Notes: generated from the letters alone by a model not told the origin. A DNA stretch of 64,000 bases from Candidatus Uhrbacteria bacterium (GCA_016219925.1 JACRJU010000012.1:6723-70722), one strand, 5' to 3'; positions 12,803 to 38,855 are shown, counted from the first letter of the stretch. Numbers and translations are program-made.

Positions 12803-12841
12803 GGTATCAAAAAATTCCGCGTGAGCGAAATTTTTTGATGT

Positions 12842-13301
12842 CCTGGGAGAAGTCTGTAAGCCGAATTTTGTCTTCTGTGGGCGCGAGCCCAGAGGAGATG
12901 GCCATCTCTCTAGCCCGATCATTGCTGACCGGATCAAGACCGGCGAAGCCGGTCATAGCGAGCTACCAAACTTGCTCTTTCACCGAAAAGGGTTTGCCAC
13001 GCCATCGTGTCACCACGAGGCGAGATGCGTGGCACACCGGGCAGGGCCCCGTGCACGCCGCATCACTTTTCACCTTTGATCCGGCCGTGAGGCCGGACTC
13101 GTATTGTCTCTGTGGTACTTTCCCTAGGTTTTGAATCCGGGATCAGGGAATATGAATTGCTCCAATTCCGCGAGCCCTGAATCTTATGCCTGGTCGCCGT
13201 TAGCGACTTTTCGTTTCCTGATGCCTTGCGACACCAGGGGTGTTCGGACTTTCCTCTCCATCCTTTTGATGGATGCAGCGGCCATCCGACTTTCCCAGGA
13301 C
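12842..13301 (-). ncRNA. rnpB: RNase P RNA (rnpB), bacterial type
   Basis: Minus-strand read contains P4 5' strand AGGAAAGTCCGAACAC, J11/12 AAAGGTGAAAAGTG and P4 3' strand CACAGAAGACAAAATTCGGCTTACAG (compare E. coli GGAAAGUCCGGGC / AAGGGUGAAA / ACAGAACCCGGCUUA). P1 pairing CCTGGGAAAGTC...GACTTCTCCCAGG; a perfect promoter lies upstream; A/T stem hairpin plus T-run at the 3' end. Confidence 0.75.
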
Positions 13302-24164: not shown

Positions 24165-24338
24165 ACGTCTCATGGATAACGCACCGATTCTAACAAACAA
24201 GACGTTTTCCGTCAACGGGAAAGCTTGCGTTTCATGCCTTTTCCAGACATCCGCATTTTTGGACGCCCCTTCTTTTCTCGTCGTTTAATTCGTCGTTCTT
24301 CTTTATGTTCGGCGATTTCAATCTTCATATTTTTTTCT

Positions 24339-24434
24339 GTCATCCCGAGCGAAGCACTTGTCATCCTGAGCGAAGCGAAGGATCCCGTGCACCTTGGGAT
24401 CCTTCAGTCCATACAAACTCCTTCAGGATGACAT
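24339..24434. repeat. about 95-bp nested-palindromic repeat element (family core TGTCATCCTGAGCG[A/C]AGCGAAGGATC)
   Basis: Outer inverted repeat TGTCATCCTGA...TCAGGATGACA and inner perfect 10-bp inverted repeat GAAGGATCCC-gtgcacctt-GGGATCCTTC, plus an extra direct half-copy (GTCATCCCGAGCGAAGCAC). Same family as 37345-37419 and 37954-38027. The ORF-track ORF 24225..24431 (…VILSEAKDP…) is simply its translation. Confidence 0.55.
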
Positions 24435-24483
24435 AGAGAGAAACACACTAGAGGTTCGCTTTTTCCCATGATATACTTTTCTT

Positions 24484-25230: not shown

Positions 25231-26514
25231 ATGAATTTTTTCGTGCGTATCGGTGCGGTCGGAGTTTTGCTCAGTCTTTTTTTTGCTCCAAGAGTTTTGT
25301 TAGCTGCGGGCGCCGCGGACACCTGTGCGTGTTTTTGCGCGAATGAAAAGTTAGGAGCACAGAAATTGAAAGATGAGGCCGTGACACCAGATCAATGTGA
25401 GACCGGGTGTACAGAAACAGGAAGAAAGGTTGCTGTTTGCGCCAAGAAGCCAAAGAATTTTCCCGGAAATAATCCCCTGTGCTTTGATTCAGCAGCTTGC
25501 GGTAAACAGGAAGGAGTTTTAGATAAAACACAAGCTCCAGAGTGTCCAAACGGATGGTCTTATTGTTATCCGAACATTGAAAAGTCTGCTGCCAAACTGA
25601 ATATCCCTATTGCGGGTTTGGAAACGGTTGGGGATTTGGGAGTGTATGTGTCGGCCATTTACAAATGGATGGTTGGGATTTCGGGATTTTTAGCTATTAC
25701 CATGGTTATGATCGGCGGGATTCAGTATGTGCTTGCCTCGGGGAGTGAGAACGTCACCAAAGCAAAAGAGCGCATGCAGAATGGGGTGATTGGAATGGCG
25801 CTCCTTTTTGGTGTCGTTCTTATTTTACAGACCATTAACCCCCAGCTTCTTAAATTGGAGATCCCTCGACCTTCTTTGATTCGGCGAGTGGATTTTGTCA
25901 AAAATTCGTGTGAGAAATTGGCTGAGCAGGGATATACTCTTGAGCTCACGAAAGATGGAAAAAAGGAATGTGGAAATACTGCGGAAATCAAAAAAGGTCC
26001 AGGGGGGACAACTGTGGCTGAAGGGCTTACGTGTCAATATACCAAGTGTGAAAAAGGGGCCTGTATATCAACCAGCACTGATGGCGAAGGAGTTTGTGTT
26101 GATTGCCGAAATGTTTCAAAAAATAATCCGACAAGTCCTGGCATTCCGTCCAAATCGGTGTGTAAAGGAATGGAGATACAAAAAACCAATGCAAAAGGTG
26201 AACTGCTTTCCGCAAATTATTGTGAATTCCAACCCGGCGGTGTGCTCAATATATATAACCCCAAGCAGACGACAACCGCTGTGGCACTTTCTGCGGATTC
26301 ATGTTTCGAGACAGTGGTCGACTGTAGCACTATCAAGGAATGCGAAAATTACGATAATGCTCCGGTTTATTATTGGGATGGCGGTGTCCTTAAAAAACAG
26401 GATTTAGATAGCATTTTACCCATTACTTTTCAACAGATTTGTATTAATGATCCGTGTGAGGCTGGAAAAAAGGAAGGATCAAAATGCACGTGGTCGATAA
26501 CGGACTGTGATTAG
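25231..26514 (+). CDS. secreted/membrane cysteine-rich protein (26 Cys) with a central VirB2/TrbC-pilin-like two-helix hairpin
   Basis: 427 aa; signal peptide; ectodomain 1 with 10 Cys; TM hairpin (VYVSAIYKWMVGISGFLAITMVMIGGIQYV - short KAKERM loop - IGMALLFGVVLILQTI) resembling TrbC/VirB2-type pilins; ectodomain 2 with 16 Cys; starts 6 nt after the dsbA-like stop. Confidence 0.5.
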   Translation: MNFFVRIGAVGVLLSLFFAPRVLLAAGAADTCACFCANEKLGAQKLKDEAVTPDQCETGCTETGRKVAVCAKKPKNFPGNNPLCFDSAACGKQEGVLDKTQAPECPNGWSYCYPNIEKSAAKLNIPIAGLETVGDLGVYVSAIYKWMVGISGFLAITMVMIGGIQYVLASGSENVTKAKERMQNGVIGMALLFGVVLILQTINPQLLKLEIPRPSLIRRVDFVKNSCEKLAEQGYTLELTKDGKKECGNTAEIKKGPGGTTVAEGLTCQYTKCEKGACISTSTDGEGVCVDCRNVSKNNPTSPGIPSKSVCKGMEIQKTNAKGELLSANYCEFQPGGVLNIYNPKQTTTAVALSADSCFETVVDCSTIKECENYDNAPVYYWDGGVLKKQDLDSILPITFQQICINDPCEAGKKEGSKCTWSITDCD

Positions 26515-33389: not shown

Positions 33390-33466
33390 TGGTAGGGGCG
33401 GATGGATTCGAACCATCGGCCATCGAGGTATAAGCTCGACGCTCTAACCAACTGAGCTACGCCCCT
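33390..33466 (-). tRNA. tRNA-Ile with anticodon UAU (AUA-decoding type), CCA encoded
   Basis: Minus-strand read AGGGGCGTAGCTCAGTTGGTTAGAGCG-TCGAG-CTTATAC-CTCGA-TGGCC-GATGGTTCGAATCCATC-CGCCCCTACCA; perfect 5-bp anticodon stem; loop CTTATAC gives U33 and anticodon TAT. Confidence 0.7.
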
Positions 33467-36803: not shown

Positions 36804-37946
36804 TTATAGCATTGAACGATAAATTTCTCGTGTGCGTTCGCACATGGTCTGAACGTTGAATCGTGATACAACCCTCTCTTGCCCGACTCGACCCATGTGC
36901 GCGCATAGCTTGGGTTCAACAGCGAGCCGTTCAATAGCATCCCGAAGAGCCAGGGGATCATTTGGAGGCACCATAATCCCCGCGTCTGATCCGACAGCCT
37001 CTTTGATTCCTCCGACGTTGCTTGCAATGACGGGAAGGCCTTGGGCCATGGCTTCAAGAATGGAATAGGGCAATCCTTCATAGCGAGTTGGGAGAACGAA
37101 GATATCAGCCATTTTAAGCCTCTCAAGAACTTGCCTGCGAGTGAGGGCCCCTGTCAGTTCAACCTGTTGGTCGAGGCTGAATTCGCGGATGGCTTTTTGG
37201 AGTTCGGGTTTCTGCGGACCATCGCCAATAAAGGTTATTTGGATGCGCTGGCGTATAGAAGGCGGTAAAAACGAGATAGATTTTAAAAGAAGAAACGGAT
37301 CTTTTGGTGGCGCGAGCCGACCGATAAACAAGATATGGCTTTGTGATCCTTCGTCGGCCTGCGGTCTTCTCTGGATGACAGACTGGTTTTTGTCATCCTG
37401 AGCGCTAGCGAAGGATTCCGAGGTTTCGACTCCGTTGTAAACGACAGTCAGTTTTTCTTTTGGCGCGATTCGGTGTGTGCGGGCTAATTGTAAATCATTT
37501 TTTGAAACGCAGATGATCATTGAACAGAAGTGAGCTGTGAGTCTTTCGAGCCATGGAAGTATGACCCGTCGAGAGCGCTTTGTTCCTTGTGTGAAGCTCC
37601 ATCCATGAGCCGTAAAGATCGTTGGAATACGGTTGTTGATGACAAAGCGTCCCAGAAGTCCGGTCATAGTGCTATGACAGGCGACGAGATCAGGCTGATT
37701 GTTTTTAACAGCGGCGAGGAGCAGGCGGGACGCTTTCCATAACCGAAGCGGATTCACGCTATTTGCAAGCCAAGCATTTGGATAAAAAGTTGCTCCAAGC
37801 CGTTTCGTTTCTTCCTCAAGCCAACCACCGGGCGCACTCATGACAGCGACTTGATCACCCTGCGACAGAAAAAACTTTGTGAGTTGAGCCACGTGTGTCT
37901 GGGCTCCTCCTTGTTCGGATTTGGTGATGAAGAAAAAAATTTTCAT
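36804..37946 (-). CDS. glycosyltransferase family 4, with an in-frame insertion of the dispersed repeat in the inter-domain linker
   Basis: 380 aa; MKIFFFITKSEQGGAQTHV N-terminus and EGLPYSILEAMAQGLPVIAS motif; the linker segment ...ESFASAQDDKNQSVIQRRPQADEGS... is encoded by repeat copy 37345-37419. Confidence 0.75.
   Translation of the reverse strand: MKIFFFITKSEQGGAQTHVAQLTKFFLSQGDQVAVMSAPGGWLEEETKRLGATFYPNAWLANSVNPLRLWKASRLLLAAVKNNQPDLVACHSTMTGLLGRFVINNRIPTIFTAHGWSFTQGTKRSRRVILPWLERLTAHFCSMIICVSKNDLQLARTHRIAPKEKLTVVYNGVETSESFASAQDDKNQSVIQRRPQADEGSQSHILFIGRLAPPKDPFLLLKSISFLPPSIRQRIQITFIGDGPQKPELQKAIREFSLDQQVELTGALTRRQVLERLKMADIFVLPTRYEGLPYSILEAMAQGLPVIASNVGGIKEAVGSDAGIMVPPNDPLALRDAIERLAVEPKLCAHMGRVGQERVVSRFNVQTMCERTREIYRSML
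37345..37419. repeat. intragenic copy of the nested-palindromic repeat (outer GATCCTTCG...CGAAGGATC, inner GGATGACA...TGTCATCC)
   Basis: GATCCTTCGtcggcctgcggtcttctctGGATGACAgactggtttttTGTCATCCTGAGCGCTAGCGAAGGATTCC. Confidence 0.5.
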
Positions 37947-37953
37947 ATATCTC

Positions 37954-38027
37954 TGTCATCCTGAGCGCCAGCGAAATATTATAAATACTTCTGTCATCTG
38001 TCATCCTGAGCGCCAGCGAAGGATCAC
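37954..38027. repeat. intergenic tandem half-copies of the same repeat family (TGTCATCCTGAGCGCCAGCGAAA ... TGTCATC-TGTCATCCTGAGCGCCAGCGAAGGATCAC)
   Basis: Direct sequence match to the repeat core; lies between the GT4 start (37946) and the GT2 stop (38031). Confidence 0.5.
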
Positions 38028-38030
38028 GAA

Positions 38031-38855
38031 TTATTGCATGCTCGGATGCTTGTACACGATTTGTCCAAACACGTGCACTCGCGCCCATCGTACGATGCAG
38101 ATCGGTAGGATGATCGCCAAAAATGGCTTGATGAGATGAATCGCGCACCAAAGAGGGTAGTCACCTCTTTTAAGAGCGCGCCAACGCGCTCTGAGGGCAA
38201 AGCGGATTTGTTCCTGCTCGTTTTTGAAAGAGATCATGTGTGTGGTCATCCGTTTTTGCATGAGGATGTCCGGGAGGTTTGCAAAGTGTGCCGTAGATGA
38301 GAGGCGGAGCCACAAATCGTAGTCCTGGGCTTTTTTGAACGTCTCGTCATAGCCGCCTGCACGGTCTAATGTTTTTTTTCGGATCATGATGGAACCGTGC
38401 AAGAACGGATTCGTGCGAATGAGGGTTTTGTGGAGCGTCTGAGAATCAGTTATCACCTGAGGTCTGCCGATGATGCGTCCTTCTGCATCGATCCATTCAA
38501 ATGCCGTGCCGACCATATCGATGTCTGGATGCGTATCAAGAAAGGCGATTTGGTTTGCGAGACGTTCTGGGAGCGCGATATCATCCGCATCCATACGGGC
38601 GACATAGTTACCTGTTGCTTGAGTAAGGGCGCGGTTGAGCGACTTAGTGAGCCCAAGGTTTGTGGAGTTGGTGAGCACGCGGATGCGGTCATCTTGTGCG
38701 GCAAGCTCACGCAGGATTTGAGAGGTCGTATCGGTTGAGCCATCGTCGACGATCAAGAGTTCGAAATCGCGAAAGCTCTGCCTAAGCAAACTCAACACCG
38801 CCTCGCGGATAAAGCGATCGCCGTTGAAGACGCAACAGACAAGAGAAACGCGCAT
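38031..38855 (-). CDS. glycosyltransferase family 2 (GT-A)
   Basis: 274 aa; VSLVCCVFNGDRFIREAV...LLIVDDGSTD...ARMDADD (DxD) motifs. Confidence 0.75.
   Translation of the reverse strand: MRVSLVCCVFNGDRFIREAVLSLLRQSFRDFELLIVDDGSTDTTSQILRELAAQDDRIRVLTNSTNLGLTKSLNRALTQATGNYVARMDADDIALPERLANQIAFLDTHPDIDMVGTAFEWIDAEGRIIGRPQVITDSQTLHKTLIRTNPFLHGSIMIRKKTLDRAGGYDETFKKAQDYDLWLRLSSTAHFANLPDILMQKRMTTHMISFKNEQEQIRFALRARWRALKRGDYPLWCAIHLIKPFLAIILPICIVRWARVHVFGQIVYKHPSMQ

Follow-up and report, generated by a model that had tools for sequence, protein, structure and literature searches.

Three palindromic loci in a 64,000-nt stretch of DNA from a Candidatus Uhrbacteria bacterium (GCA_016219925.1 JACRJU010000012.1:6723-70722; the whole stretch is referred to as the window, and all positions are counted within it) are probably copies of a TGTC-tagged palindromic repeat that are, or once were, recognition sites for the single-stranded DNA (ssDNA) nuclease Ssn. 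The repeats are of the kind described as CGTC-tagged repetitive extragenic palindromes (REPs; Di Nocera, De Gregorio & Rocco 2013, BMC Genomics 14:522, PMC3733652) and as Ssn-related motifs (SRMs; Chenal et al. 2025, Nat Commun 16:2388, PMC11893778). An earlier note on this DNA had regarded the family as novel. That label has to be dropped because the family was already documented under these two names. The window repeats add a new sequence type to a known system rather than defining an element of a new kind. For the anatomy of the repeats, their covariation, their distribution among phyla, the gene associated with them, and the homology of its product to SsnA we rely on the present analysis, and for ssDNA binding and cleavage on the literature.

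Hairpin units in the window and their conservation

A unit of ~25 nt, TGTC-ATCCT-GA-GC-G(N1-2)A-GC-GA-AGGAT-C, was found at three loci, designated locus 1 (24339-24433), locus 2 (37345-37417), and locus 3 (37955-38025). The motif occurs in the window far more often than expected by chance. Searching with GTCATCCTGAGCG at two or fewer mismatches returned 8 matches, compared with 1.56 expected, and none of 100 shuffled sequences reached 8. A scan based on structure only recovered exactly three complete units in the window, whereas 10 shuffles gave none, and all three complete units carry the TGTC tag. These results uphold the three-locus family of the earlier note, with its sequences where they had been placed. 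The single 27-nt core with a choice of A or C that had been proposed for it requires revision. Loci 2 and 3 have two nucleotides (CT and CC, respectively) where locus 1 has one (A), and thus only locus 1 matches that core with three or fewer mismatches.

The complete unit of locus 1, TGTCATCCTGAGCGAAGCGAAGGATC (24359..24384, plus strand), has the T-GTC tag, the ATCCT/AGGAT stem, the tandem G.A mismatches, a GC-GAA-GC mini-hairpin, and the 3' C. It is an exact match to the core, for which 0 matches were expected, and was also recovered by the structural scan. A partial copy of the 5' end of the unit, or head, GTCATCCCGAGCGAAGC (24339..24355, plus strand), which has one mismatch to GTCATCCTGAGCG, ends inside the hairpin tip and is followed by 4 nt and then the complete unit. 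The outer inverted repeat of the locus is formed by TGTCATCCTGA (24359-24369) and TCAGGATGACA (24423-24433). A perfect 10-bp inner inverted repeat, GAAGGATCCC (24377-24386) and GGGATCCTTC (24397-24406), is the central stem (24377..24406) of a doublet. The second arm of this doublet is a degenerate unit on the minus strand (24397..24433; TGTCATCCTGA, 17 nt, and GAAGGATCCC), which together with the complete unit at 24359-24384 makes an inverted doublet with the tags facing outward.

Locus 2 is inside a gene for a GT4 glycosyltransferase and consists of a degenerate long-loop unit on the minus strand (TGTCATCCAGA...CGAAGGATC; 37345..37380), which encodes ...SVIQRRPQADEGS..., and a complete unit on the plus strand (37391..37417), with the 2-nt loop variant GCG-CT-AGC, whose minus strand encodes ...ESFASAQDDK.... 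The two units are arranged tag to tag. The complete unit has a T at 37417 in place of the conserved 3' C, which is present at 24384 and at 38025 in the complete units of loci 1 and 3. Locus 3 begins with a truncated 21-nt unit, GTCATCCTGAGCGCCAGCGAA (37955..37975, plus strand), that lacks the 3' half of the stem and lies 8 nt from the start codon of the GT4 gene. A 7-nt head fragment, TGTCATC (37992..37998, plus strand), directly abuts the complete unit (37999..38025, plus strand; loop GCG-CC-AGC, with 3' C), whose end is 5 nt away from the stop codon of a GT2 gene upstream (38031..38855, minus strand). One locus is intragenic and in frame, and the other two are intergenic. At both locus 2 and locus 3, the tag is on the strand antisense to the genes.

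To evaluate conservation of the hairpin, 150 distinct 25-mers were picked by sequence similarity alone from 1.8 Mb of loci; the same selection yielded one match in shuffled DNA. The consensus unit was (T/C)GTC-ATCCT-GA-GC-G(N1-2)A-GC-GA-AGGAT-C, and its seven Watson-Crick pairs were kept in 87% of cells. Changes on both sides of a pair numbered 101, compared with 24.8 +/- 4.2 in shuffles, and none of 500 shuffles reached the observed value. Covariation was seen at all seven stem pairs, with a value of 0.33 compared with 0.10 or less in slid controls. For example, the outer stem alternates among ATCCT/AGGAT, ATTCT/AGAAT, ATGCT/AGCAT, and ATCCC/GGGAT, and the 2-bp stem of the tip among GC/GC, AC/GT, and GT/AC. 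The tip of every unit was GCGNAGC or GCGNNAGC, with N unconstrained. The predicted fold of the unit, (((((..((...))..))))), was the same with DNA and RNA parameters.

The unpaired positions on either side of the hairpin are also conserved. Position -1 was T in 84% and C in 11% of 384 units, and position +1 was C in 377 of them (98%). A scan that did not require GTC nevertheless found it in 59 of 62 matches. Some doublets are hybrids, such as one ATCCT/AGGAT arm with one ATTCT/AGAAT arm, in which pairing within each arm is kept and pairing between arms is broken. Hybrid doublets thus indicate that the single hairpin is the selected unit.

Folding of each copy had been proposed as a check in the earlier note. 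The doublets at loci 1 and 2 fold significantly, with z-scores of -3.4 to -4.2 on either strand for region 24336-24436, where the inner 10-bp stem is present in both the minimum free energy and the centroid structures, and -3.7 to -4.6 for region 37343-37420. The single unit had no significant folding energy. An Rfam search, also suggested in the earlier note, identified no relevant family for the repeats in the window at gathering thresholds. At E values of 10 or less there was no match at locus 1 and only chance-level matches to small nucleolar and small RNAs (E 2.4 to 7.4) around loci 2 and 3.

The mini-hairpin DNA d(GCGNAGC) reportedly goes back to the work of Hirao and co-workers. The tip of the window-type unit is exactly GCG-N-AGC or GCG-NN-AGC. 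A review of such structures (PMC13037366) describes the GCGNAGC/GCGNNAGC mini-hairpin as ultra-stable in DNA form, much less so in RNA form, and only poorly bound by single-strand-binding protein. There the mini-hairpin is a curiosity of physical chemistry, exemplified by priming sites on phage ssDNA and by the N4 promoter, and the passages searched describe no dispersed genomic repeat family that carries it.

Inverted doublets, phylogenetic range, and head duplications

The units typically occur in pairs. A partner arm was found within 120 nt of 94 of 149 units, compared with 16 in the upstream control. Among 85 adjacent pairs, 57 had the orientation +-, 11 had -+, 9 had --, and 8 had ++, so the tag-outward inverted doublet dominates. 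No direct repeat of 2-6 nt flanked 56 doublets, at offsets of 0-2, above the permutation expectation. This lack of target-site duplications does not agree with the suggestion that the elements are MITE-like (miniature inverted-repeat transposable elements) in the DDE-transposon sense. A different arrangement was observed at the end of one viral-classified IMG/VR contig (L239, 8596-8969), where five units that all point the same way and recur regularly every ~87 nt form a tandem array rather than doublets.

The family is multicopy well outside the window, and its earlier description as a dispersed, nested-palindromic family resembling REPs or bacterial interspersed mosaic elements (BIMEs) is borne out. 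The exact 24-nt core was found in at least 120 stretches of a species-representative genome collection. Among the matches listed, a dozen or more phyla are represented (Acidobacteriota, Chloroflexota, Patescibacteria, Omnitrophota, Bacillota, Planctomycetota, Bacteroidota, Verrucomicrobiota, Proteobacteria, Cyanobacteria, and others), with four Patescibacteria genomes as well as cultured isolates among the sources. The core was also present in 71 IMG/VR contigs. No relative of the GIY-YIG protein considered below was confirmed in these 71 core-bearing viral stretches, and therefore a phage vehicle for the units is not supported. A search of literature full text for the core strings returned only one unrelated cell-biology paper, with the two 13-mers.

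Repetitive sequence of this kind has practical consequences. A Logan contig (L001, from SRR12113407; 9.7 kb) that is identical to the window, and is the only public contig encoding the window's DsbA-like protein, breaks off exactly at base 1 of the locus 1 unit. An assembly break at this position is expected of a sequence that is present in many copies. The units also account for short spurious open reading frames (ORFs) with peptides of the VILSEAKDP or DPSLRSG* type. The earlier note was right that the core can seed such ORFs: VILSEAKDP is in frame with a 68-aa ORF (24225..24431) that has no Pfam match.

Partial copies like those that precede the complete units at loci 1 and 3 are a recurrent feature. 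Such head duplications were found at 40 of 369 units, compared with 11 in a far upstream control and 5 in a downstream control. A complete unit is then preceded by one, two, or three tandem copies of a stretch made up of 7-12 nt of flank and the first 11-17 nt of the unit, with a period of ~21 nt. Examples are the window positions 24339-24359 and 37955-37999 and loci L029, L172, L203, L236, and L272, among others. These duplications may be a footprint of cleavage and repair or of slippage. The duplicated stretch covers the reported Ssn cut position.

The bracketed GIY-YIG gene and the Ssn system

The start of a GIY-YIG protein (…FYVYIMTN…LYTGITNN…) was spotted adjoining one of the units. The association was evaluated in both directions. 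In the forward test, 0.9 Mb of core-selected loci was searched for GIY-YIG ORFs with a hidden Markov model (HMM). Five ORFs were found, in Hymenobacter glaciei, a Chloroflexota metagenome-assembled genome, an alphaproteobacterium, and two more genomes, and each of the five has a unit at a distance of 0-41 nt. In the reverse test, 80 metagenome loci were chosen by protein homology only, and 31 of them had a strict unit within 200 nt of the gene. Fourteen units were within 100 nt upstream on the strand of the gene, and 13 were within 100 nt downstream on the opposite strand, which indicates the layout unit(+)-gene-unit(-), with the units inverted. Most of the other loci in this test had variant GTC-tagged hairpins.

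The unit-flanked proteins are ~92-100 aa in length, and GIY-YIG is their only Pfam domain. Comparison of the Chloroflexota protein with the 94-aa ORF that lies between canonical NTS repeats in N. gonorrhoeae gave 46% identity (tblastn, E 2e-16). A profile of four unit-flanked proteins aligned with the same ORF over 90 columns (hhalign probability 99.6%, E 1.6e-24). As judged from these alignments, the unit-flanked proteins are full-length homologues of Neisseria SsnA.

The Neisseria form of the repeat is the NTS (CGTCATTCCCGCGMAVGCGGGAATCYRG). The NTS and related SRM motifs lie on both sides of ssnA, whose 94-aa product has GIY-YIG (cd10448) as its single domain. For SsnA to bind, the hairpin has to be ssDNA; double-stranded DNA (dsDNA), RNA, and the reverse strand are not bound. 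The C after the palindrome is required for binding, and the three bases before the palindrome are required for cutting. Cleavage takes place a few nucleotides upstream of the tag, and transformation with NTS-bearing DNA is lowered. An insertion sequence-like origin of Ssn followed by domestication has been proposed (PMC11893778).

The window-type units share with SRMs an HGTC 5' tag, an AT-starting palindrome with a C directly after it, and a hairpin of 20-50 nt. In other genomes they also share the repeat-gene-repeat arrangement around a ~94-aa single-domain GIY-YIG gene, many further scattered copies per genome, and occurrence in many phyla. Furthermore, the conserved positions on the tag side (-1) and after the hairpin (+1 C) coincide with the bases that mutagenesis found to be critical for cutting and binding, respectively (PMC11893778). 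There are also differences. The stem of the window-type unit contains two G.A mismatches and ends in a GCG-N(1-2)-AGC tip. The host here is Uhrbacteria, with no ssn gene within the window, and the role in transformation has been published for N. meningitidis only.

The CGTC-tagged REPs have an unpaired CGTC at one end, often changed to TGTC, or else CCTC. They start their stem with AT, form mainly inverted dimers, reach high copy numbers, lie for the most part between genes, and occur in several phyla. They include Neisseria dRS3 and the Rickettsia elements RPE-4 and RPE-6, and in-frame intragenic copies exist. These repeats were described as 'apparently lacking a dedicated transposase', and genes for RAYTs (REP-associated tyrosine transposases) or other transposases flanked by CGTC sequences were sought but not found (PMC3733652). 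The window-type unit has the same unpaired TGTC at one end, a stem starting with A/T over ~9 positions, and a short unpaired 3' tail beginning with C. Inverted dimers likewise prevail, several phyla are represented, there is no association with RAYT genes, and in-frame intragenic copies, which in the published cases add 20-30 residues, are found. The published families have 8-9 Watson-Crick pairs, loops of 4-5 nt, and a CCA-like tail, whereas the window-type unit has 5 + 2 Watson-Crick pairs split by tandem G.A, a loop of 3-4 nt, and a C(T/C)C tail. The window core strings are absent from the text and supplements of PMC3733652, and the consensus sequences CGTC-1 to CGTC-4 were compared by description only.

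Taken as a mechanism, the ~25-nt unit would fold as ssDNA into a 5-bp AT-starting stem with two G.A mismatches and a GC-G(N1-2)A-GC tip, leaving (T/C)GTC and the 3' C unpaired. Units would be exposed as ssDNA during replication, repair, or DNA uptake, and by analogy with the Neisseria system those in the window would be, or would have been, recognized by Ssn. They may spread as tag-outward inverted doublets in the manner of REPs around RAYT genes. One copy appears to have been fixed in frame in the linker of a glycosyltransferase and to have lost the critical 3' C. We infer that a cognate Ssn acts on the copies in this Patescibacteria-like genome. The possibility of a recombination site raised in the earlier note comes near to the published role in Neisseria.

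Several considerations weigh against the interpretation of the window units as Ssn sites. The published SRM search sequence, HGTCWYN(0-2)YYVSBRHN(0-5)WNVSBRGN(0-2)RNCYNB, which does match the canonical Neisseria NTS, matches nothing in the window, the three units included, and likewise finds nothing in the 80 GIY-YIG loci that represent this subgroup of proteins. The mismatch is due to the tandem G.A positions. Because the units fail the published pattern, their membership among SRMs is based on architecture and protein homology. An HMM search found no ssn/GIY-YIG ORF in the 64-kb window, and an ssn gene is not established in this genome or in any Patescibacteria genome. When proteins were searched with the GIY-YIG profile, more than 7,990 relatives came up, and the matches listed were from Hymenobacter, Pedobacter, Chloroflexia, and similar organisms. 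Ssn binding and cleavage have been published for the Neisseria and Wolbachia pairs only (PMC11893778). Nearest-neighbor folding of the single unit was not significant (z -0.6 as DNA and -1.1 as RNA), and the doublets fold equally well as RNA. With z-scores this similar for DNA and RNA, folding alone cannot distinguish a DNA-level from an RNA-level function. Finally, the loss of the 3' C from the locus 2 unit and the truncated copies at locus 3 suggest that some copies are probably inert.

These last features raise the possibility that the copies in this genome are inert relics, orphan hairpins, whether inherited or acquired, that came without a working nuclease and are kept as neutral sequence or, at locus 2, as tolerated linker coding sequence. 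We regard this as a serious possibility, although an unlikely one. It would account for the window having no ssn gene and for the degenerate partner units at loci 1 and 2, as well as for the imperfect copies just mentioned, and in homologous GT4 genes the linker in question holds other repeat-like insertions in a decayed state. However, no defect is seen in the tag, stem, tip, or 3' C of the units at 24359-24384 and 37999-38025, and their intactness suggests activity in the recent past or selection. The break of the public assembly exactly at the locus 1 unit, as for a sequence with many copies, also does not favor relics.

A function mainly as RNA, with transcribed REP-like hairpins serving in mRNA stabilization, in attenuation or termination, or as targets of RNase III/E, and any link to Ssn secondary, is improbable. 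As RNA, both strands of loci 1 and 2 do give significant folds (z -3.7 to -4.2), and locus 3 has a placement typical of REPs between two codirectional genes, 5 nt past a stop codon and 8 nt before a start codon. Many REPs have been argued to be transcribed and to act as RNA (PMC3733652). However, no run of T follows the hairpins in the window, there is no relevant Rfam match, and for loci 2 and 3 it is the strand antisense to the mRNA that carries the tag. The 5' GTC and the 3' C outside the helix are conserved asymmetrically, and such bases are read by the ssDNA nuclease but are needless for an RNA stabilizer. The GCGNAGC tip is described as much less stable in RNA (PMC13037366), and SsnA does not bind RNA (PMC11893778). 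The RNase target and attenuator put forward in the earlier note found no specific support, as the partner enzyme acts on ssDNA and not on RNA or dsDNA (PMC11893778).

The units have further features in common with REP, BIME, and REPIN-RAYT systems, reportedly described by Nunvar in 2010 and by Bertels and Rainey in 2011. In both cases there are short tagged hairpins, inverted doublets that are able to form a larger hairpin, no target-site duplication, and a gene for a cognate single-strand-specific enzyme that is bracketed by the repeats. Vertical persistence and many nonautonomous copies are also shared. The REPIN-RAYT systems differ in having a GTAG tag and a Y1 HUH transposase, in contrast to (T/C)GTC and a GIY-YIG nuclease here, and REP sequences are species specific, whereas the window-type core is identical over 24 nt across phyla. 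Mobilization of the units by a RAYT (IS200/IS605-type Y1 HUH) as REP/REPIN elements, or by a DDE transposase as MITEs, is very improbable despite the REPIN-like anatomy of short hairpins, unpaired 5' tetranucleotide, inverted doublets, and no target-site duplications, because the tag is (T/C)GTC and not GTAG, the only bracketed gene found was GIY-YIG (no systematic Pfam scan for Y1 transposases was made), Di Nocera et al. found no transposase gene flanked by CGTC repeats (PMC3733652), and the absence of target-site duplications and of long terminal inverted repeats speaks against a DDE-type MITE.

The interpretation of the units as Ssn targets can be extended, more tentatively. The unit with G.A mismatches and the GCGNAGC tip might form a class of Ssn target in its own right, possibly more widespread than any other. 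Together with an Ssn subgroup of its own, it would have spread through most phyla, the reduced genomes of Patescibacteria among them. The head duplications (11% of units) might then be footprints left where Ssn had cut and where repair was faulty or the template was switched. We consider this combined proposal doubtful. If the footprint reading is true, the duplications would be the first sequence-level trace of how nonautonomous hairpins are copied.

The published SRM search sequence overlooks a very widespread motif type that has 24-nt identity across a dozen or more phyla and is linked to a protein family with thousands of members. As the pattern misses the G.A type, the published numbers of genomes with SRMs and of ssn genes 'without SRM' may be underestimates. 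The conserved tag, the 3' C, and the DNA mini-hairpin tip make units such as TGTCATCCTGAGCGAAGCGAAGGATCTC ready substrates for probing new Ssn specificities. Should these DNA-scavenging and probably competent bacteria have a cognate Ssn, ssDNA restriction of incoming DNA would extend to the Candidate Phyla Radiation.

Two individual loci with a unit-flanked GIY-YIG gene were also noted. On a Planktothrix agardhii plasmid (L203; NZ_LR882964.1, 18250-19722), the Ssn-like gene is located between a gene for an MmeI-type type IIL restriction-modification enzyme and the DISARM helicase gene drmA, a setting that is a defense island. At another locus (L109, 4575-5600), several tandem doublets of ~140 nt (GTCATTCTGAACGGAGTGAAGAATC … GATCCTTCGCTGCGCTCAGGATGAC) are found on both sides of the GIY-YIG gene. 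These doublets are heterodimers, with two arms that differ in stem and tip variant.

Candidates of other kinds were rejected by comparison of the repeats with the consensus sequences of these elements. These were integron attC sites, dif/Xer sites, Tn7-like ends, DnaA boxes, and sequencing adapters, as well as a promoter role for locus 3.

The intragenic copy and other features of the window

The GT4 glycosyltransferase gene (36804..37946, minus strand; 380 aa) carries locus 2 in frame within a variable linker between domains. The window protein was aligned with 19 homologues (46-59% identity), and those named by organism are from Candidatus Uhrbacteria or Patescibacteria. Locus 2 sits in a length-variable linker between the two Rossmann-like halves of the protein (…YNGVE / FVGRLAPPK…), and the window linker is ~15-17 residues longer than the linker in the shortest of these homologues. 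The linker peptide ESFASAQDDK…SVIQRRPQADEGS is the translation of the two locus 2 units. Thus, the units explain a length-variable, repeat-derived linker in a glycosyltransferase of Patescibacteria.

Three of the homologues (P0003, P0004, and P0006; alignment columns ~190-225) have different insertions at this position, which read as peptides typical of translated units (…SLRS…GMT…). The alignment suggests repeated or ancient insertion at one tolerant site. The complete unit of locus 2, with T in place of the 3' C, is consistent with decay after fixation. Solved structures were too distant to show the insertion, and close homologues were needed for the comparison. The locus is similar to the Rickettsia palindromic elements in being an in-frame palindromic insertion in a surface-exposed, length-variable linker of a conserved enzyme. 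It differs from them in host phylum and in sequence. RPE-1, at ~100-150 bp, is unrelated, and only RPE-4 and RPE-6 are of the CGTC type.

Other features of the window were also observed. A 427-aa ORF (25231-26514, plus strand) that adjoins the DsbA-like gene matched T4SS_pilin (PF18895; E 8e-8), and this pilin-like ORF may be relevant to DNA uptake in this lineage. Like the source organisms of the GT4 homologues, it marks the window as Patescibacteria-like. ARAGORN predicted a tRNA-Ile with the anticodon TAT (33390-33466, minus strand), an uncommon mode of AUA decoding in bacteria. A tRNA-Val(GAC) is located 565 nt from it on the other strand, and the inverted repeat at this pair is attributable to the mere similarity of two tRNAs. 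A match to class A RNase P RNA (12840-13297, minus strand) is 458 nt in length, compared with 367 positions in the model, and therefore includes sizeable insertions.

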